DNA of 64,000 nucleotides from Candidatus Eiseniibacteriota bacterium (GTDB taxonomy: Bacteria > Desulfobacterota > Binatia > DP-6). The notes under the pieces were generated by a model. It was given only the letters and a program-made list of their open reading frames with translations. It was not told where the DNA came from and ran no database searches. Positions 2,770 through 39,209 of the stretch are shown here, piece by piece. The position numbers and the translations under genes are program-made. Numbering within the stretch: position 1 is the stretch's first letter; the number at the start of each line of letters is the position of its first letter. The DNA lies in assembly GCA_035577985.1 (NCBI GenBank), contig DATJZY010000025.1, positions 66,229 through 130,228 of the forward strand, written 5' to 3'.

Positions 2770-3158
2770 TGGGTGCGAGCGCGTTCGACATCGTCGACAC
2801 CTACGTCCATCTCGCCGACGGGCCGGAGGCCGTGCCCGTCCCCGTGGGCCCCGACTTCTGGGCGACGATCGATCGACGAAGCGACCTGCACCGGGGCCGA
2901 CTCGTCACGGCGTATCGCTTCGAGCCGGGTAAATGGAACCATTGGGAGATGCACCCGGCGGGCGACGAGATCGTGTGTCAGTTCTCGGGCGCGATGGACC
3001 TCGTTCTGGAGATGGGACGGGACGAGCGGACGGTCGAGCTCCGGGGACGATCCGCGTTCATCATCCCGCGCGGCGTCTGGCACTCGGCGATCGTGCACGC
3101 GCCGAGCGAGGCGCTCTTCATCACGCGCGGCGAGGGAACCGAGCACCGCCCCGCGTAG
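2770..3158 (+). CDS. Cupin domain protein
   Basis: GGAG RBS then ATG 2770; motifs HPAGDEIVCQFSG and RGVWHS (cupin metal-binding His motifs); in-frame downstream part of ORF 2679..3158. Confidence 0.65.
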
Positions 3159-10992: not shown

Positions 10993-12510
10993 ATGTCCGA
11001 GGAGTCAGAGCTTCAAGTCAGACGGGAGCGTGACCTCTATCTTCGACTCTTGCGGCTGGGCGACGCACAGGAGCTCGAGCCCTTTCTTCGCGAGGCCCTC
11101 GCGCTCATCGTCGAGGTGACCGGCGCACGCCTCGGCTACCTGCAGGTCGACGACGTCGACCATGATCCCGCGGGCGAGGGGTGGTGGATGCAGCACGGTT
11201 TCTCGGAGGGGGAGCTCGCCCAGGTGCGAGCCAGCATCTCGCAGGGGATCGTGGCGCAGGCGCTCGAGACCGGCGAGACGATCATGACGGCGTCGGCCCT
11301 CCTCGACCCGCGCTTCCGCGAGCGCGGGAGCGTCCGCGCCAGCCGCATCGAGTCGGTGCTGTGCGCGCCGATCGGCCGTGATCCGCGCCTGGGTGTGCTC
11401 TACCTGCAGGGCCGCACCGAGCCCGGGACCTTCACGGAGGAGGATCGATCGAACGCCGAGGTGTTCGCGCGCCACCTGGCGCCGCTGGCGGACCGACTGC
11501 TCACGCAGGAGCGGCGGCGGATCGACACCGACGCCACGCGCGCGGCTCGCCTGCGCCTGCGCGCCGACGGCGTGATCGGGCGCAGCGCCGCGCTCGCCAG
11601 GGTCCTCCAGCAGGTGGCCCTCGTGGCGCCGCTCGAGCTGTCCATCCTGCTCACGGGCGAGACCGGAACCGGCAAGAGCCAGCTCGCGCGCGTGATCCAC
11701 GACAACAGCCTGCGGGCGTCGGGTCCGTTCATCGAGCTCAACTGCGCCGCGCTCCCGGACAACCTGATCGAGAGCGAGCTGTTCGGGGCCATGCCCGGCG
11801 CCCACTCGACGGCGACCAAGCGGATCGAGGGCAAGCTCGCCGCCGCCACGCAGGGGACGCTCCTGCTCGACGAGGTCGGCGACCTCTCGCTGCCGGCGCA
11901 GGCGAAGCTCCTGCAGCTCCTGCAATCGGGGGAATACTTTCCGCTGGGGGCCGCGCGGTCCATCCGCGCCGACGTCCGCATCATCGCCGCGACCAACACG
12001 GATCTCGCCGCCGCGATGGCCGAGCACCGCTTCCGCGAGGATCTCTTCTACCGGCTGCACGTGCTGCCGATCCACGTGCCGAGCCTCGCCGAGCGGCGGG
12101 ACGACATCGGCGCGCTCGCCCAGTACTTCTGCGCCCAGGCGAGCGAGCGGCATCGGCTGCCGCACGTCGGCATCTCGCCGTACGCCCAGCGGGCGCTCGA
12201 GGCCGCGGAGTGGCCCGGCAACGTGCGCCAGCTCGCGCACAGCGTCGAAGCCGCCACCATCCGCGCCGCGGCGACCGGCGCGCGCTGGGTCGAGCGCGGC
12301 CACTTCTTCCCCGAGACGGGATCGAACGGGACCGAGCACAACGGACAGCTGACGTTCCAGGAGGCGACGCGGCGCTTCCACGTGAAGCTGCTCCGCGACA
12401 CGCTGGACGAATCTGGATGGAGCGTGATCGAGGCCGCCCGCCGTCTCGACCTCGCGCGCTCGCACGTCTACAACCTGATCCGCGCCCTCGGCATCGAGCG
12501 CCCGAAGTAG
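10993..12510 (+). CDS. Sigma-54-dependent transcriptional activator with N-terminal GAF domain (second copy)
   Basis: Walker A GETGTGKSQ, ESELFG, C-terminal HTH; 505 aa. Confidence 0.9.
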   Translation: MSEESELQVRRERDLYLRLLRLGDAQELEPFLREALALIVEVTGARLGYLQVDDVDHDPAGEGWWMQHGFSEGELAQVRASISQGIVAQALETGETIMTASALLDPRFRERGSVRASRIESVLCAPIGRDPRLGVLYLQGRTEPGTFTEEDRSNAEVFARHLAPLADRLLTQERRRIDTDATRAARLRLRADGVIGRSAALARVLQQVALVAPLELSILLTGETGTGKSQLARVIHDNSLRASGPFIELNCAALPDNLIESELFGAMPGAHSTATKRIEGKLAAATQGTLLLDEVGDLSLPAQAKLLQLLQSGEYFPLGAARSIRADVRIIAATNTDLAAAMAEHRFREDLFYRLHVLPIHVPSLAERRDDIGALAQYFCAQASERHRLPHVGISPYAQRALEAAEWPGNVRQLAHSVEAATIRAAATGARWVERGHFFPETGSNGTEHNGQLTFQEATRRFHVKLLRDTLDESGWSVIEAARRLDLARSHVYNLIRALGIERPK

Positions 12511-12584
12511 CTTCCGCGTCCACGATCGTGGACACGGCGTCAACACCGCGCGACGCCGCGGCGGCGGTTCCGTGCGCAATCCCG

Positions 12585-12600
12585 TGGCACCCGTCTTGCT
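12585..12600 (+). promoter_or_regulatory. Sigma-54 (-24/-12) promoter, consensus-perfect
   Basis: TGGCAC-ccgtc-TTGCT at 12585-12600 matches TGGCAC-N5-TTGCW exactly; about 75 nt downstream of the EBP stop, same strand. Confidence 0.6.
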
Positions 12601-12613
12601 CCGGAAAGACGGC

Positions 12614-12856
12614 ATGACGGGTAGCTGGTTGCAGACGGTACGCGGGAACGTGCGCTTCCTGCACAGGCGCGTCCCGCGACGGCGTCGGGCCTATGGCACC
12701 TGTGCCGCCTGCGGCGTGGCGCTCGAAGGGGCCGCCGATGGGTGGGAAGCGGCCGAGACACAGCTCCGCCGGCACGAGCTGGCGTGCCCACGCGACCGGC
12801 ACCCGGCGCCCAGACGCTCGGCAGCACCGAGGCTGGGCGCGGTCTCATCGACCTGA
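12614..12856 (+). CDS. Candidate small (80 aa) Cys-containing protein immediately downstream of the sigma-54 promoter (speculative)
   Basis: ATG 12614 sits 2-4 nt after the predicted +1; CxxC (GTCAACG) and C...H; moderate GC3 bias; Arg-rich, so it could be a spurious ORF. Confidence 0.2.
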   Translation: MTGSWLQTVRGNVRFLHRRVPRRRRAYGTCAACGVALEGAADGWEAAETQLRRHELACPRDRHPAPRRSAAPRLGAVSST

Positions 12857-12895
12857 CCTTCCTGGCGCAGATCTCCCTCCGCGCCGGGTGACGGG

Positions 12896-12926
12896 CTCCG
12901 CGGGGCCGCCTGTCGGCCCCGCGGAG
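12896..12926 (+). terminator. Perfect 12-bp GC stem / 7-nt loop hairpin (candidate terminator or attenuator; no U-tract)
   Basis: CTCCGCGGGGCC gcctgtc GGCCCCGCGGAG read directly from the sequence. Confidence 0.35.
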
Positions 12927-12929
12927 CGC

Positions 12930-12983
12930 GACCGTTCGGGCCCCGGAGTAGCCGGCCTGCAACCCCCGGCCGACCGTTCGGGC
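12930..12983 (+). promoter_or_regulatory. Two identical 12-bp direct repeats GACCGTTCGGGC (AlgR/LytTR-like half sites) upstream of lytS
   Basis: Copies at 12930-12941 and 12972-12983 (42-bp spacing); core CCGTTCG matches the P. aeruginosa AlgR box CCGTTCGTC; lies 74-127 nt upstream of the LytS start. Confidence 0.4.
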
Positions 12984-13056
12984 GAAACTGCTCGCGCGCG
13001 GGCGCCCGGCGCGCAACCGTAGTCGGTGAGGCCCGGCCTGCGGTAGCATCGGCGCC

Positions 13057-14190
13057 ATGGTCTCGGCCGACATCGTCATGAAGCGACCGTTCCTTCGAGA
13101 TCGCATGTTCCAGGTCGTGCTCGCCATGGGCGCGGCCGTGGGCCTCCACCTGGGCCTCCTCCACCTCTTCCTGTGGAAGACGGCGGCCGCCCCGCTCACC
13201 TTCTTCGTGTGCGCGCTCGTCTTCGCGTCCGTCGCCTACGCGCTGCAGCGATGGATCTTCCCGGCGCTCTCACGGCCGTCCTTCGCTGCCCAGGTGACGC
13301 TCGAGGTCGTGGCCGCGACGATCGCCTTCGGCGCGCTGTCGGTGGTGGTCGCATCGACGGTGGCGTACCTCCTGGGCGCGCCGCCGCTCTTCGGCAGCCC
13401 CACCGGAGCGGAGGAGCACATCCTCATCACCCCGGCGATGCGGCAGGCTGGCGTCCGCATGTACGCCCTCATGCCGATCGTGCCCACCGTCATCTCGTCG
13501 GTCATCGGCTATCACCTCGTCTGGCGGCGTATGGAGACGCTGCAGACCCGGGCGCAGGAGCTGACCGAGCTCGCCGCGACCGCACAGCTCGCCGCCCTGC
13601 GGGCGCAGATCAATCCGCACTTCCTGTTCAACAGTCTCAACTCGATCGCGCAGCTGATCCACGTCGACCCCGCCAAGGCCGAGGCGTGCGTCGAGCGGCT
13701 GGCCGAGATCTTCCGCTACCTCCTGCACCGCGCCGAGCAGGAGTTCGTGCCGCTCGCGGACGAGCTCCAGATGACGACGGCCTACCTCGAGATCGAGCGC
13801 GCGCGGTTCGACGAACGGCTGCGGGTCGAGACGCGCGTCGATCCGCGGAGCCTGCGGCGCCTGATTCCGAACCTGATCCTGCAGCCCCTGGTCGAGAACG
13901 CGGTGAAGCACGGCCTCTCGCGCAAGGTCGGGCCCGGCACGCTGCGCATCGACGCGCTGGTCGAAGACGAGATGCTGACGCTCGTCATCGGCGACGACGG
14001 GCTCGGCATGTCGTCCTCGGTGCTCGATTCGGTGTACGACCGCGGCGTCGGCCTGCGCAACCTGCGCGCCCGCCTCGAGCGCCTCTATGGGCCGTCGCAC
14101 CTGCCCGAGATCACGAGCACGCCCGGCGGCGGCACTCGCGTGTGCTTGCGCCTGCCCACGCGCGACGCCCTGCCACGCCAGGCGGCATGA
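13057..14190 (+). CDS. LytS/YehU-family sensor histidine kinase (5TM + His_kinase + HATPase_c)
   Basis: N-terminal TM helices; INPHFLFNSLNSIAQL (LytS-type H box region); LQPLVENAVKHG and GxGLxN ATPase motifs. Confidence 0.85.
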   Translation: MVSADIVMKRPFLRDRMFQVVLAMGAAVGLHLGLLHLFLWKTAAAPLTFFVCALVFASVAYALQRWIFPALSRPSFAAQVTLEVVAATIAFGALSVVVASTVAYLLGAPPLFGSPTGAEEHILITPAMRQAGVRMYALMPIVPTVISSVIGYHLVWRRMETLQTRAQELTELAATAQLAALRAQINPHFLFNSLNSIAQLIHVDPAKAEACVERLAEIFRYLLHRAEQEFVPLADELQMTTAYLEIERARFDERLRVETRVDPRSLRRLIPNLILQPLVENAVKHGLSRKVGPGTLRIDALVEDEMLTLVIGDDGLGMSSSVLDSVYDRGVGLRNLRARLERLYGPSHLPEITSTPGGGTRVCLRLPTRDALPRQAA

Positions 14191-14948
14191 CATCGATCCG
14201 CACGCTCGTCGTCGACGACGAGAAGCTCGCGCGCGATCGCCTCATCGGGTTTCTCGCCAAGGTCGACGGGGTGGAGGTGATCGGGCAGGCGATCAACGGC
14301 GTCGAGGCCGTCGAACGCATCGAGCAGGACCAGCCGGACCTGGTGTTCCTCGACGTCCAGATGCCCGGCATGGACGGCTTCGACGTGCTGAAGTCGCTCT
14401 CGCGCCCCGCGCCGCAGGTGGTGTTCGCGACGGCCTACGACGAGTACGCGATCCGCGCCTTCGAGGTCCAGGCGGTCGACTACCTCCTGAAGCCGTTCGC
14501 CCGCGCGCGCGTCGAAGAAGCGGTGGGCCGCGTCCGGACGCGCCTCGATCACGGCACGCCCGGGCTCGACGTCGAAGCGGTGCTGAAGCGCCTCGAGGAC
14601 AGCCGCAAGGACCACGTGCGGCAGGTGCCGGTGCACGCGGGTAAGCGCATCCTGCTGCTCCCGGTGGAAGACGTCCTGTGGTTCGGCGTCGAGTATCGCC
14701 TGGTCTACGCGCACACGGCCGAGCGCGCCTACATGACCAACCTCACGCTGCGCGAGCTCGAGGAGCGCCTCGACCCCGACGCGTTCTTCCGGGCCCACAA
14801 GGCGAGCCTCGTGAACATGCGCCAGGTGCGCGAGATCGTCCCCTGGTTCGGTGGTCGCTACAAGCTCGTCATGAAGGACGGCGCGGCAAGCGAGGTCGCC
14901 GTCAGCCGTGCCCAGGCGCGGGAGCTGCGCACGAAGCTGCGCTGGTGA
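14187..14948 (+). CDS. LytTR/AlgR-family response regulator (REC + LytTR DNA-binding domain)
   Basis: LVVDDE...FLDVQMPGMDGF receiver; C-terminal LytTR domain (VPVHAGKRILLLPVEDVLWF...); ATGA overlap with the kinase stop. Confidence 0.85.
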   Translation: MTSIRTLVVDDEKLARDRLIGFLAKVDGVEVIGQAINGVEAVERIEQDQPDLVFLDVQMPGMDGFDVLKSLSRPAPQVVFATAYDEYAIRAFEVQAVDYLLKPFARARVEEAVGRVRTRLDHGTPGLDVEAVLKRLEDSRKDHVRQVPVHAGKRILLLPVEDVLWFGVEYRLVYAHTAERAYMTNLTLRELEERLDPDAFFRAHKASLVNMRQVREIVPWFGGRYKLVMKDGAASEVAVSRAQARELRTKLRW

Positions 14949-14968
14949 TCGATGGCACCGCGGCGAGG

Positions 14969-14997
14969 TTGACAGGTTTCGGCACCGTCCGTAGACC
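14969..14997 (+). promoter_or_regulatory. Candidate sigma-70-type promoter TTGACA-N17-TAGACC upstream of the VWA-exbBD operon (weak -10)
   Basis: TTGACA at 14969-14974, TAGACC at 14992-14997; flanked by GGCACCG direct repeats (14954, 14981). Confidence 0.25.
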
Positions 14998-15014
14998 CCA
15001 TCGGTCCCGCCTCG

Positions 15015-16265
15015 ATGTCGCCCCCCCCTCCTCCGGTCTCGTCCTTCCATCCCCGGGCCGCCCGCAGCGCCGTCGCGCTCCTGGTCTCGATCCTCCTCCA
15101 CGTCGTCTTCGTCGCGCTCGTGATCTTCGACGTGACGGGGCTCGGCGGCGGGTTCGGCATCGGCGTCGGTCCGGGCTTCGGCATCGGCAGCGGCGGCGGT
15201 CCCGGCCTCGGCGAACAGCAGCGGCGCGAGATCTTCTCGCTCGAGGACATCCCGGACCTCGTGCGGCCGCAGGAGCCGAACTCCGAGCAGGAGCTGACCG
15301 CATTGCTGGCGCCGCGCGAAGCCGAGCGCATCCTCGTCCCGCAGCCGGCGAAGCCCAAGACGGCGACGTCGACCAACGCGCCCGTCATCCAGTTCGCCCG
15401 ACCCGTGAAGCCGATCGGCGCCGGCACCGATCTCGGCGCGCGCCTCGCGGCGGCGGGCGCGGGCTCGGGCGGCATCGGCCTCGGCGGCGGAGGCGGTGGT
15501 CTCGGCTGGTCGCTCGGCAGCTCGTTCGGAAAATACGTCGGGGGGCTCCGCAAGGTCGGCCTCGACGTCGCCATCGTCGTCGACTCGACCGGCAGCATGC
15601 AGAACATCATCGACGACCTGAAGCGCCGCCTGCAGGACCTGGTGCGCACCATGCAGCGCCTCGTCCCGACGGCGCGCATCGGCGCCGTCGCCTATCGCGA
15701 CCGCACCGACGACAAGGTCGCGACCGCACCGCGGCAGAGCGAGGATTTCCTCGTGAAGTGGAGCGACCTCACCTACAACGCCTCGAAGGTGCAGTCCTTC
15801 CTCGGCGGCATCGTCGCCGAGGGCGGCGGCGACTGGAAGGAAGCCGTGAAGGAAGGGCTCGAGACGGCGATGAAGCAGCTCAAGTGGCGCCCCGATGCCA
15901 AGAAGGTGATCATCATCGTCGGCAGCTCACCGCCGCACGACGAAGATCTCCCCGCCATCCGGAACCTCATCGCCGACTGGCGCGCGCGCAACGGCTACGT
16001 GAGCACGATCGACGTCAGCTATCCGCTCCACGCCGAGCACGAGCGCAAGCTCAATCGCTGGCTCTACGGCGAGGAGCCGAAGGAGATCTCGCCGCTGCCC
16101 GAGTTCTACAAGGAGCTGCAGCAGAGCTTCCACGAGATCTCGAAGCAGGGCGGCGGCACGGACGTCGCGCTGGGCGAGGACGCGGCGCTGGTGCGCAACG
16201 TGCTCGTGCTGGCATTCGGGTCGCAGTGGGAGAAAGAGGTGGGCCGCGTCGCACGCGGCCGGTAA
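15015..16265 (+). CDS. Membrane-anchored von Willebrand factor A (VWA) domain protein with TonB-like N-terminal architecture
   Basis: Single N-terminal TM helix ([20 protein letters not shown]), Gly-rich then Pro/Lys-rich linker, C-terminal VWA with MIDAS DxSxS (VVDSTGSM). Confidence 0.75.
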
Positions 16266-16290
16266 CGACTATGCTACGAGGAGCACCGTA

Positions 16291-16950
16291 ATGGAGAACG
16301 CCGTCAACCCCGTGGACCTCAGCTTCTGGACCTTGATCCAGCAGGGCGCGATCTCGACCTATCCCCTGCTCATCTGCTCGGTCATCGTGGTGGCCGTCGC
16401 GCTCGAACGCGCCTGGGCGCTGCGCGGCGCGCTCGCCGCGGCGCCCGCGCTCGCGGCGCGCATTGCGCCGACGCTCGCCAACGGCGACGCGAAGAACGCG
16501 ATCGCGACGCTGGCGCAGGCCCCCGCCACCGCTGCGCGACGCGTCTTCGCCGACATCCTGGCCGAGCCGGGGCTCGAACGGACCGAGCTCGAGCGGATCG
16601 CCGACGAACGCCAGTTCGAGGAGGCCCAGGAGGCCGGATCCTATCTCTGGATCCTCGGCACGATCGGATCGTCGGCGCCGTTCATCGGCCTGTTCGGTAC
16701 GGTGATGGGCATCATCCGCTCGTTCCACAGCATGGCGATCGCCGGCACCGGCGGCTTCGGCGTCGTCGCGGGCGGCATCTCCGAGGCGCTGATCGCAACC
16801 GCGCTCGGGCTCGCGGTCGGCATCCTCGCGGTCGTCCTCTACAACTACTTCCAGGCGCGCGTGGAACGCATCGACGCGGCCCTGCAGATCGGCAGCGCTC
16901 GGGTCGTGGAAGCGCTCATGGCCGGACGGAGAGCGCATGGCGTTCGGTAA
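16291..16950 (+). CDS. MotA/TolQ/ExbB-family proton-channel protein
   Basis: 219 aa, three TM helices, conserved TolQ/ExbB C-terminal TM2-TM3 block ([24 protein letters not shown]...[17 protein letters not shown]); GAGGAG RBS. Confidence 0.85.
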
Positions 16951-17341
16951 GGCCCATCGCCGCGGCCAGATCGTCGCCGAGATCAACGTCACGCCGCTGA
17001 CGGACGTATTCCTGGTCCTCCTCATCATCTTCATGATCACCACCTCGGCCATGGTGAAGCCCGCGGCCGACGTGAACCTGCCCGAGACCGCCGAGGACAA
17101 CCAGGAGACCCAGGGCGTCATGGTGACCATGACGCCGAGCAAGCAGATCTACGTCGGCGATCGCTCGGTCGAGGGCGACGACGCGGCGGTCGTGAGCGCG
17201 CTCAAGGACGCGCTCGCGCGCGCCAAGCAGAAGGTCGTGATCCTCGCCGGCGACCGGCAGGTCGTGCTCGGCGAGGTCGTTCGCGTGCTCGGGCTTGCCA
17301 AGGAGGCGGGCGCGTCCGGCTTCGCCCTGGCCTCGGAGTGA
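16937..17341 (+). CDS. ExbD/TolR-family biopolymer transport protein
   Basis: 134 aa; [19 protein letters not shown] signature TM; overlaps the ExbB stop. Confidence 0.85.
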
Positions 17342-32463: not shown

Positions 32464-32701
32464 AGGAGACCGACCCAAGACTCCGTCTTGGGTCGGGGAG
32501 GACGCGAGTGTGGCGTCCGGGCACGCGCGACCGGCATGCCGCGGCCAGCCAAGCTGGCGCGGCAGACGAAATACGCGCGTTGCGGCGCGACGACGGCTTA
32601 CGGTCGATGGGAACGATGCTCTCGCGCGCTGCGAGGGTGCCGCCGCCTTCGCCGGCCGCGGCATGCCGGTCGCCCGTACCACGAGCGCATCATTCTCGCC
32701 C

Positions 32702-33655
32702 CTAGGCCCGCTGGCCGCGGATCTCCCGCCACCCCTCCGCGCGGAACACGCGGGCGCGATATTCCGTCGGTGTCAGCGCCGCCAGCTCGCGGAAGTCGCG
32801 ATGGAGATGCGACTGGTCGTAATAGCCGCACTCCTGCGCGACCTCGGAGAGCTCGACGGTTGCCGGATCGGCGAGGCGTCCGAGCGCGCGCTCGAAGCGC
32901 AGGATCCGCATCATGCCCTTCGGCGAGAGGCCGATCTCGCGGTGGAAGAGGTCACCCAGATAGCGCGACGACACGCCGAGGTCGCGGGCGAGCGACTCGA
33001 CGCGCACCGTGCCGGAGCTGGCGCGCATGCGGTCGACGGCGGCGCGCGTCAGCGGATGGGCCGCGGGTCCGCGCAGGAGGCGCGTCGTGAGCCAACCCTC
33101 GAGGAGATCGAGCGCGACGCCGAGGTCCGGCGCCGCGAGCATGCGCTGGCGCAGCGGCTCGACCCCGGCGGGGGCGCCGAGGACCGACTCCAGGTCCGTC
33201 GTGTCGTTCGCGAGGTCCTGCTGCGGGAGCCCGCCGAAGAGCGCCCAGGCGCCGAGCGGCCGGAGCTGCGCCGCGATCGCGCGCGGGTGGCGGAGCACCG
33301 ATTCCCATCCGACGGGGCGCTCCTGCAGGCCGGAGATCCACGCGGTGCGATACAAGCGGCCGCGCGCTTCGCGATCGTCGAGCAGATGCTGCGGCGTGCC
33401 GAGGTTGAACATGAGCGTCAGCTCGCCGTTCGGCAGCGCGCGATGCAGGGCGTAGGTCTCGTCGGCGTCGCCGCCCCATAGCTTCGCGACGTAACCCGAG
33501 ACCGCCGGCGGCGGGTCGCGGAGCCACAGCTCCCACGCGACTTCGCCCGGCCGCTGGCGCCGCACCCGCGTGCGCGGGTGCGGCGCGAGCAGCTCCGGCA
33601 GCGGATTCCCGGATCGGTCGAGACCGACGTAGTCGCGAAGGGGGCTCGCCCCCAT
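32702..33655 (-). CDS. AraC-family transcriptional regulator
   Basis: C-terminal HTH_18 (LARDLGVSSRYLGDLFHREIGLSPKGMMRILRFERAL...ECGYYDQSHLHRDFRELAALTPTEYR). Confidence 0.85.
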   Translation of the reverse strand: MGASPLRDYVGLDRSGNPLPELLAPHPRTRVRRQRPGEVAWELWLRDPPPAVSGYVAKLWGGDADETYALHRALPNGELTLMFNLGTPQHLLDDREARGRLYRTAWISGLQERPVGWESVLRHPRAIAAQLRPLGAWALFGGLPQQDLANDTTDLESVLGAPAGVEPLRQRMLAAPDLGVALDLLEGWLTTRLLRGPAAHPLTRAAVDRMRASSGTVRVESLARDLGVSSRYLGDLFHREIGLSPKGMMRILRFERALGRLADPATVELSEVAQECGYYDQSHLHRDFRELAALTPTEYRARVFRAEGWREIRGQRA

Positions 33656-38265: not shown

Positions 38266-39209
38266 GCTCGATCCTCGACGCGCTCGAGAAGCTCGAGGCG
38301 ACGGGCGGGCCGCAGCCGCCCGGTGGCGGCGGAGGCGGCGACCCCGGGCGCCGGCCGCCGTGGCTGATCGCCGTCCTCGTCGTCGCGGCGATCGCTGCAG
38401 GCGCCGGCACGACGATGCTCATCCGCAGCCGGGCGGCGGCACCTCCCCAGCCGGAAGCGGTCGTCGCAGCCGTGGCCTCGACGACGATGCCCGTACCGAC
38501 GACGATGGCGGCGCCGACGACCGTCGCGCCTCCGACGACGATCGCGCCCCCCACGACGGTCGCGGTGCCGACGACGCTCGCGGAGACGACCACGCTCGCG
38601 GTGACGACGACGCTCGCCGTCACGACCACGGTCGCCGCGGCGACGACGACGCTCGTGGCCACCACGACGACCGTCGTCTCGACCACGGAGCCGGCGGCGA
38701 CGACGACCAGCAGCACGTCGCCGGCAGCGCAGGCGCCGCCGCCCACGACGGCCCCGGTCGCCGCGGCGCCTCCCGCGCCCGCGCCAGCTCCTCCCGTGCC
38801 CGCGCCGACCGGCGACGCGCACGACCGTCCGTTTGCCGCAACGCAGGAGGCGGCGCCCGGAGCGACGCCGACGACGACCGTGCCCGCCACCGTCGCGCGT
38901 CCGGCGCCCACCACGCCCACGACGCTCGCGGCGGCGCCCCCGCCTCCCGCACCCGCTCCGCCGCCCGCCGAGCCGCCCCCTCCGGTGCGCACGCGGCCGC
39001 CCACCGGTGCGCCGCGCCTGCGCGTCAGCTTCCTCGTCTACTCGACGACGCCCGCGCGCCGCACCGTCGCGCTCACGATCGGCGACGCGGGGCTGACGAC
39101 GCTGCGCGAGGGCGAGGAGGCCCAGGGCATCCAGGTGATCCGCATCCACCCCGACCGCGTCGAGCTGAAATGGCAGGGGGAGCCGTTCACGCTCGAGATT
39201 CGCGGCTGA
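38262..39209 (+). CDS. gspB: GspB/ExeB-like protein with Thr/Pro/Ala-rich low-complexity periplasmic region
   Basis: GTG overlapping gspA stop (GTGA); N-terminal SSILDALEKLE resembles the GspB N-terminus; single TM; about 200 aa of PTTxAx repeats. Confidence 0.5.
   Translation: MSSILDALEKLEATGGPQPPGGGGGGDPGRRPPWLIAVLVVAAIAAGAGTTMLIRSRAAAPPQPEAVVAAVASTTMPVPTTMAAPTTVAPPTTIAPPTTVAVPTTLAETTTLAVTTTLAVTTTVAAATTTLVATTTTVVSTTEPAATTTSSTSPAAQAPPPTTAPVAAAPPAPAPAPPVPAPTGDAHDRPFAATQEAAPGATPTTTVPATVARPAPTTPTTLAAAPPPPAPAPPPAEPPPPVRTRPPTGAPRLRVSFLVYSTTPARRTVALTIGDAGLTTLREGEEAQGIQVIRIHPDRVELKWQGEPFTLEIRG
38497..38660 (+). repeat. Intragenic tandem 18-bp (6-codon) repeat, about 9 copies, encoding PTT[VIL]A[PV]
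   Basis: CCGACGACGATGGCGGCG / CCGACGACCGTCGCGCCT / CCGACGACGATCGCGCCC ... read directly. Confidence 0.7.

Follow-up and report, generated by a model that had tools for sequence, protein, structure and literature searches.

Binding sites of LytTR-type response regulators generally consist of two repeats, direct or inverted, of 9-11 nucleotides (nt) with spacers of 11-13 nt (PMC4847170). AlgR, the regulator of the AlgZ(FimS)/AlgR system of Pseudomonas aeruginosa, recognises the 9-bp consensus CCGTTCGTC, which was defined by footprints and chromatin immunoprecipitation sequencing (ChIP-seq); single 9-mer sites are known upstream of algC (-94) and mucR (-99 to -90) and also within the algC open reading frame (ORF), and mutation of CC to TA abolishes AlgR binding (PMC4064291; PMC4787818). 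In the BtsS/BtsR (YehU/YehT) system of Escherichia coli, the YehT/BtsR probe from the yjiY promoter carries the direct repeats GCCGCTCA, ACCGCTTA and ACCACTCA, placed 20-21 bp apart (PMC4847170). Regulators of the AgrA, ComE, PlnC/D and VirR type bind direct repeats upstream of the promoter of their own operon. The present analysis concerns a related arrangement in a 64-kb stretch of DNA from a Candidatus Eiseniibacteriota bacterium (64,000 nt of contig DATJZY010000025.1, assembly GCA_035577985.1; hereafter the window, G+C content 71.5%), in which a short box, CGACCG(T/C)TCG, precedes an operon encoding a histidine kinase and a LytTR-type response regulator. This box is a candidate operator, through which the regulator would activate its own operon.

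The AlgZ(FimS)/AlgR system resembles this locus in that a PF06580-type membrane kinase is followed by a regulator with receiver (REC) and LytTR domains. The core CCGTTCG is also identical, a preliminary description of this DNA having rightly recognised it as the published core of the AlgR site (PMC4064291; PMC4787818), and the single upstream sites of AlgR (-94, -99 to -90) and its in-ORF sites resemble the box at -81.5 and the copy at +27 described below. The two systems differ in phylum, the present one belonging to Binatia-like metagenome-assembled genomes (MAGs), and in the bases that are kept, as the last two bases of the AlgR consensus are not conserved here, whereas a 5' extension, CGA, is. 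The match to the consensus is 7/9 in the window (CCGTTCGGG) and 8/9 in the orthologous loci L002 and L033 (CCGTTCGTT), and orthologs keep CGACCGTTCG but not the 3' TC. Autoregulation of AlgR through such a site upstream of algZ is not described in PMC4064291 or PMC4787818.

The yjiY/btsT promoter, target of BtsS/BtsR, has in common with the loci analysed here the ACCG(C/T)TC core and a 20/21/42-bp periodicity. The present kinase differs from that system in having 377 amino acids (aa) and no LytS-type five-transmembrane (5TM) and GAF domains, and the site lies in the promoter of its own operon, not 5' of a transporter gene. Compared with the AgrA, ComE, PlnC/D and VirR type, the window has a spacer of 29 nt, most orthologs have one strong repeat, the sites are at -81.5 instead of abutting the -35 element, and peptide-signal genes are absent here. 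By analogy, the system would work like AlgZ/AlgR, BtsS/BtsR and autoregulated LytTR operons generally. A literature search on Binatia two-component systems gave nothing relevant.

The box in the kinase promoter

The genes of the operon and the elements of its promoter are located in the window as follows.

13057..14190, plus strand: histidine kinase, 377 aa, with a hydrophobic N-terminal region, His_kinase PF06580 and HATPase_c (domains, periodicity of G+C at third codon positions (GC3), orthologs at 61-74% identity)
14187..14948, plus strand: 253-aa response regulator with a REC domain and a LytTR DNA-binding domain, the protein proposed to bind the boxes (domains)
12971..12983, plus strand: proximal box CGACCGTTCGGGC, conserved candidate operator, centred near -81.5 from the predicted start at ATG 13057
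12929..12941, plus strand: distal box CGACCGTTCGGGC, putative lineage-specific accessory site, centred near -123.5, 42 bp 5' of the proximal box
13083..13092, plus strand: third, partial copy GCGACCGTTC, spanning codons K-R-P-F of the kinase ORF, about +27 to +37
12987..12994, plus strand: conserved block ACTGCTCG, 14 bp 3' of the proximal box, half-site-like, 7/8 to ACCGCTCG, with invariant CT.G columns
13015..13025, plus strand: ACCGT at 13015-13019, exactly 42 bp 3' of A 12973 in the proximal box, overlapping a weak -35-like TAGTCG (13020-13025)
13044..13049, plus strand: -10-like hexamer TAGCAT, ending 7 nt before the ATG, called from conservation

Orthologs came from three sources: species-representative genomes (six Binatia / "delta proteobacterium" MAGs, 65-68% identity), metagenomes (one relative with 93% DNA identity, L013, and about 23 loci at 61-74% identity) and contig look-ups of regulator homologs. 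The first two provide 24 distinct upstream regions, and the total is about 27 distinct orthologous loci, including soil metagenomes. In the alignment, GACCGTTC is present once in each of the distinct upstream regions (24/24) and is invariant among variable neighbouring columns, lying 83-88 nt before the conserved kinase ATG with L031 as the sole positional outlier. Four further lineages carry the box, L055, L057 and L059 as GACCGTTC and L054 (position 1900) as GACCGCTC, which is the only natural variant of the invariant core (T to C) and is identical to the YehT/BtsR-type core ACCGCTC. The extended motif in orthologs reads T-y-C-GACCGTTCG-nn-C-C-G, and other copies of the 8-mer are rare across 285 kb of loci. 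Upstream neighbours vary between DUF35/thiolase genes, reverse-strand genes, a polyprenyl synthase cluster and a sigma-54 activator, and in the clade of L001, L004 and L005 the box starts 14 nt past the stop of an upstream DUF35-like gene; since these neighbours differ between loci, the box travels with the kinase operon. Judged by this sequence conservation, the proximal box is very probably a functional cis-element of the kinase promoter.

L031 (about 2980-3000) lacks some 40 bp, among them the -10 block and the first ATG; possible explanations are a deletion, a pseudogene and an assembly artefact.

The two identical repeats upstream of the operon, with a spacing of 42 bp, are present as first described, the unit being the 13-mer CGACCGTTCGGGC and not a 12-mer. 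The start-to-start distance of 42 bp leaves a spacer of 29 nt, in which the middle position matches the box at 5/10. The preliminary description had treated conservation in related genomes as decisive for these repeats, and such conservation is found for the proximal box (24/24 and the four further lineages) but not for the distal box, which is restricted to the window and L013. The conserved feature is accordingly one box, the proximal one, and only the window has the strict pair with its 42-bp spacing. In L013 the pair is 41 bp apart and its 13-mers are no longer identical, the two versions (CGACCGTTCGGAC and TGACCGTTCGGGC) having differing flanks; both 9-nt cores are intact there, and the 29-nt spacer has 9 differences, against an overall divergence of 6.6%.

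Judged inside the window, the 13-mer repeat alone is not beyond chance. The window has 7 exact 13-mer direct repeats at most 100 bp apart, where 1.1 would be expected, the 7-mer CCGTTCG occurs often (32 against 24 expected), and the 12-mer of the repeat has no further exact occurrence in the 64 kb, where matches with up to 2 mismatches show no enrichment (11 against 24.5 expected). Because 13-mer repeats are common inside the window, the significance of this one comes only from conservation across genomes. Elsewhere in the window, short direct repeats (GACGACGACGCTC-type 13-mers, 36-57 bp spacing) overlap one another in a cluster at 38569-38700, which is probably a repetitive coding segment.

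The predicted promoter itself was recognised by alignment. The hexamers aligned with TAGCAT in orthologs are TACAAT (in one clade), TATACC, TATAGC and TACGGT, always 6-7 nt before the conserved ATG, and the alignment holds no Shine-Dalgarno sequence between this hexamer and the kinase ATG. The 6-7 nt distance predicts a leaderless mRNA starting at the ATG, and the kinase mRNA is probably leaderless. Further upstream, A..GT.G.C columns are conserved at 13015..13025, with a -35-like form T(A/G)G(T/G)CG whose assignment is inferred from the 18-bp spacing to the -10 hexamer. A scan for consensus sigma-70 promoters and U-tract terminators found nothing, so that both promoter and terminator were called from conservation and position. 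The combination of a weak -35 element with a site at -81.5 would suit activation. A second in-frame ATG, 21-27 nt 3' of the kinase ATG, is also conserved.

Accessory repeats and the candidate binding protein

When the match score was taken at all offsets around the invariant box, the mean peaked at -21 and +14. Direct-repeat matches occur at -20 in L057 and L059 (9/10 each), at -21 in L054 (8/10), at -41 in L013 (10/10) and at -42 in the window (10/10), L003 (9/10) and L027 (8/10), the background frequency of a match of at least 9/10 being 0.14%. Independent lineages thus have accessory sites in direct orientation whose distance from the box is a multiple of about 21 bp, and in L057 and L059 the 10-nt repeats with a 10-nt spacer are near the canonical LytTR operator. 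The 42 bp of the window is best read, from these alignments, as two 21-bp periods whose middle site has decayed.

At the kinase promoter, a stretch of 165 bp holds all three of the best core matches of the 64 kb. The in-ORF copy at 13083-13092 is the second-best position weight matrix (PWM) match of the whole window and is found in L013 and not in other orthologs; a feedback or roadblock role is among its possibilities. The chance of a third exact 9-10-mer within about 150 bp, estimated from base composition, is about 0.2-0.3%.

These figures bear on whether the extra copies have any role. It is conceivable that the proximal box alone is functional, the distal (12929) and in-ORF (13083) copies being products of neutral duplication or chance and the 42-bp spacing being meaningless. 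In keeping with this, both copies are confined to the window and its 93%-identical relative, exact 13-mer repeats are common in the window (7 against 1.1 expected), the spacing in L013 is 41 bp, and the third copy stands in coding sequence. Such neutrality is nevertheless judged unlikely, as the distal core is unchanged in L013 next to a spacer with 9 differences in 29 nt, as strong matches arise independently at -42 (L003, L027) and at -20/-21 (L057, L059, L054) against a background of 0.14%, and as a third exact copy so near would be rare by chance (0.2-0.3%).

The protein that would bind these sites is suggested by the operon itself. The Pfam scan of the kinase (PF06580, E = 4e-27; HATPase_c, E = 2e-10) places it in the LytS-family histidine kinases. 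LytS proper (the LytS/YehU/YpdA type) has an N-terminal 5TMR-LYT domain, usually a GAF domain, and about 560-590 aa. The present kinase has only the two Pfam families at E <= 0.01, with no 5TM-LYT or GAF sensor domain, and the box, first described as upstream of a lytS-lytT pair, does lie in the promoter of a kinase/LytTR operon, the kinase of which is not LytS proper. The regulator is of the LytTR type (Response_reg PF00072, E = 9e-25, residues 7-113; LytTR PF04397, E = 3e-26, residues 153-251). Its best curated match is the BtsR (YehT) model NF008677 of NCBIfam, matched over the full length at 192.3 bits, below the cut-off of 246, followed by LytR (NF010684) at 163.8 bits, below the cut-off of 375; no AlgR model is among its NCBIfam matches. 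A search of PDB sequences with the regulator gave matches in the receiver domain only, which hold no information on DNA recognition. Across the best 120 cluster representatives listed, identity of the regulator is 73-96%, and this conservation fits an invariant site.

In the proposed mechanism, CGACCG(T/C)TCG would be the operator of the promoter driving the kinase/LytTR-regulator operon, and the operon's own phosphorylated regulator would be the most likely binder, giving positive autoregulation. From -81.5 an activator could contact RNA polymerase, and in the lineage of the window the second perfect box 42 bp upstream and the third at +27 would probably add cooperative binding or feedback. 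The GC-rich hairpin that lies between the upstream genes and the distal box would be a separate element, the 3' end or terminator stem of a short sigma-54-dependent transcript, stopping that small-gene transcript from entering the kinase promoter.

The periodicity of about 21 bp and the ACCG(T/C)TC core match AlgR and YehT/BtsR sites, which makes autoregulation by the cognate LytTR regulator the best and simplest reading we infer from these comparisons. A candidate regulator site is conserved in the promoter of the regulator's own operon, as in autoregulated operons, by position and conservation, the regulation itself being predicted. That the cognate regulator binds the box and activates is considered fairly likely; for the whole package of operator, autoregulation and hairpin terminator, the chances are put somewhat above even.

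Several points weigh against this reading. The binder is named by sequence comparison, the regulator is the equivalog of neither BtsR nor LytR, as its scores are under the NCBIfam cut-offs, and the system is not established as belonging with the orthologs of AlgR, BtsR or LytR. The spacing in the window (42 bp, middle site 5/10) is not that of a canonical LytTR operator, and most lineages have one strong box only. Scans of the 64 kb with the PWM and for repeat pairs gave no other convincing target, near matches to the GC-rich motif being too abundant, so that a regulon lends no support. The transcription starts are predictions. The scan found no U-tract terminator at the hairpin, its stem being followed by ACCGUUCGGGCC, and the equivalent stem in L055 is weak (z = -0.7). 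The motif is short and GC-rich, its near matches are abundant and its core is 8/10 palindromic, and a dimeric regulator of another family is possible.

This last point can be taken further, for the AlgR/BtsR likeness would be coincidental if another transcription factor, such as a dimeric helix-turn-helix protein, bound the box. Such a factor would account for the 8/10 self-complementarity of the core (CGAcCGtTCG), for the single strong box, in place of a LytTR-type pair, in most lineages and for the many near matches to a short GC-rich motif, and the regulator matches no characterised protein as an equivalog. Yet the two asymmetric positions that break the palindrome are invariant and never shift toward symmetry, the T to C change in L054 even making the site less symmetric; the accessory copies follow the LytTR pattern, being direct repeats spaced by about 21 bp or a multiple of it; and the box accompanies the kinase/regulator operon through at least four upstream contexts. 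Binding by an unrelated factor is therefore given a low probability.

The hairpin and a predicted small sigma-54-dependent unit

Between the upstream activator gene and the kinase lies a gap of 546 bp, in which no strong coding periodicity or coding GC3 signal was seen. The following features are found in and next to it.

10993..12510, plus strand: sigma-54 enhancer-binding protein with GAF, AAA+ and helix-turn-helix (HTH) domains (domain matches)
12518..12533, no strand: perfect 16-bp palindrome GTCCACGATCGTGGAC, eight nt past the activator stop, conserved in L013
12585..12599, plus strand: predicted sigma-54 promoter TGGCACccgtcTTGC (-24/-12), with a predicted start at about 12611, 3 nt before the small-ORF ATG
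12614..12856, plus strand: small ORF, 80 aa, with a CxxC...HxxxC motif (zinc-ribbon-like), called from conservation and synteny
12892..12930, plus strand: GC-rich hairpin, with a perfect 14-bp stem (12895-12908/12914-12927) and 5-nt loop, and 17-nt arms that are 94% complementary

The 12-bp perfect GC hairpin of the preliminary description is present (CTCCGCGGGGCC at 12896-12907, GCCTGTC, GGCCCCGCGGAG at 12915-12926), its stem being longer than claimed. It folds as RNA at -38.9 kcal/mol (z = -5.0), equally well on both strands, and the distal box shares its first two nucleotides with the 3' base of the hairpin. Perfect stems of at least 12 bp occur at 4 places in the window, whereas of 20 first-order Markov simulations 17 had none and 3 had one. 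The other three perfect hairpins, with stems of 12-13 bp, are at 18-44, 32470-32496 and 33557-33586, and at least the last of these is inside a high-GC3 minus-strand ORF. A search of 12300-13300 against Rfam at E <= 10 gave chance matches only, far under gathering scores, and no known RNA family.

The hairpin had been proposed to insulate the operon from the upstream sigma-54 transcript. The idea of insulation is retained here for a different transcript, since the hairpin is not directly 3' of the activator gene but 385 nt past its stop, and the interval holds the palindrome, an exactly matching sigma-54 promoter sequence and a conserved ORF of 80 codons. The promoter sequence TGGCAC-N5-TTGC is the sole exact match in the 64 kb, where 0.06 are expected, and is kept in both L013 and L055, in the latter as CGGCATcgggcTTGC. 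The palindrome has a counterpart in L055 at the equivalent place (GTGGAC-gaat-GTCCAC) and is probably the upstream activator site for the adjacent sigma-54 activator. All the parts of a sigma-54 promoter with its cognate activator are found together, namely -24/-12 elements, an upstream palindrome and a nearby gene for an enhancer-binding protein. In L055 and L056, whose regulator is 83% identical, the same order recurs (activator, palindrome, CGGCATcgggcTTGC, a 79-aa gene), and the same activator gene precedes the kinase in these two loci and in the contigs carrying P0007 and P0010.

The small ORF is judged real because of this synteny and its L055 ortholog. It is 38% identical to the 79-aa gene, called by JGI, at the same position in L055/L056, with C30, C33, H54 and C58 invariant, and in the comparison of the window with L013, 14 of its substitutions fall at third codon positions, 5 at first and 5 at second positions, with no indel; a word-indexed protein search with the 80-aa ORF gave no match. 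Two other plus-strand ORFs, of 109 aa (12693-13022) and 49 aa (12742-12891), were rejected for a stop or indel in L013 or for the lack of third-position bias. The 109-aa ORF and a long minus-strand ORF at 12540-13199 had no Pfam match, and the 49-aa ORF no NCBIfam match. A second TGGCAC, TGGCACctgtgCCGC (12694-12709, GG-N10-GC spacing), was rejected as a sigma-54 promoter, having a poor -12 element and lying inside the small ORF; it is conserved in L013 and is probably coding (Y-G-T-C).

The hairpin starts 36-38 nt past the stop of ORF 12614-12856, in the position of a stem-loop that ends a gene. Hairpin-only ('I-shaped') terminators have been described in high-GC bacteria, their efficiency being disputed. 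The present element is like these in having a long GC-rich stem soon after a stop codon and no U-tract, termination here being a prediction. All four substitutions that separate the L013 hairpin from that of the window keep or extend pairing, as C12896A and G12926T are compensatory, G12894C adds a new pair, and with C12907T the plus strand forms a U-G wobble and the minus strand an A-C mismatch. In L057 and L058 a related hairpin with a 13-bp stem, GTCGCGGGGCCGG-GAAA-CCGGCCCCGCGAC, stands at the equivalent place. An alignment of the L057 and window hairpins made with MAFFT was out of register and gave no formal pair count.

From these data the hairpin is likely the terminator of the small gene. 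The element might instead be a palindromic protein site at the level of DNA, or belong to the minus strand, as its two strands fold equally well, it has no U-tract and the palindrome abuts the distal box. This is improbable given that changes in the stem are compensatory and do not preserve sequence (L013 has A-U in place of C-G, and the stem base differs in L057), that C12907T pairs only on the plus strand, and that no convergent gene ends are found here, the hairpin lying 36-38 nt past the stop of a conserved plus-strand ORF.

The predicted transcript of the small ORF (12611-12945) has an RNA fold of -206.9 kcal/mol (z = -5.1). In a consensus fold of this putative 335-nt transcript all changes between the window and L013 are compatible, two sequences with 93% identity having little power. 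This unusual stability and the start of the box 2 nt past the hairpin would fit boxes that act as RNA elements in a long 5' leader or a read-through transcript rather than as DNA operators. Such a role is hardly credible, because the box is kept as sequence with no covariation, because its orientation and its distance to the -10 hexamer are fixed, and because in L001, L004 and L005 it stands 14 nt past an upstream stop and is followed by the conserved promoter-like block.

Downstream genes and wider meaning

The genes 3' of the regulator (14187-17341 and beyond) are in conserved order, encoding a VWA protein, MotA/ExbB, ExbD and a large TPR protein, and this downstream synteny is also found in L055, L057 and the contigs carrying P0007 and P0011. 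The first of these genes is located as follows.

15015-16265: VWA protein (domain match)

The kinase/regulator operon probably continues into the VWA, ExbB, ExbD and TPR genes, and with this synteny conserved the box may control a six-gene envelope-related operon. A far more elaborate scheme would join all of these parts into a three-layer Binatia-like cassette. In it, the GAF-sensing sigma-54 activator would drive a leaderless mRNA for the 80-aa zinc-ribbon microprotein, whose hairpin would insulate the adjacent leaderless, self-activating AlgR/BtsR-like kinase-regulator operon controlling the VWA-ExbB-ExbD-TPR envelope module; the microprotein would act on the kinase or the regulator, and the regulator, bound at the distal box that overlaps the hairpin base, would modulate termination and so couple both circuits. 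This scheme is speculative and most improbable as a whole.

Autoregulated two-component operons and hairpin terminators are routine, and conceptually nothing here is new. The local annotation is corrected in that the apparently empty 546-bp gap would hold a small zinc-ribbon-like gene dependent on sigma-54, together with two transcripts that are probably leaderless. For an uncharacterised LytTR system that is widespread and strongly conserved among Binatia-like soil bacteria, a host group known mostly from MAGs, the analysis provides a concrete candidate operator, CGACCG(T/C)TCG, at about -81.5, with accessory sites gained and lost at 21-bp multiples around one fixed primary site. This suggests that the ACCG(T/C)TC core and the 21-bp repeat logic of AlgR and BtsR, described in Proteobacteria, extend to a distant phylum.

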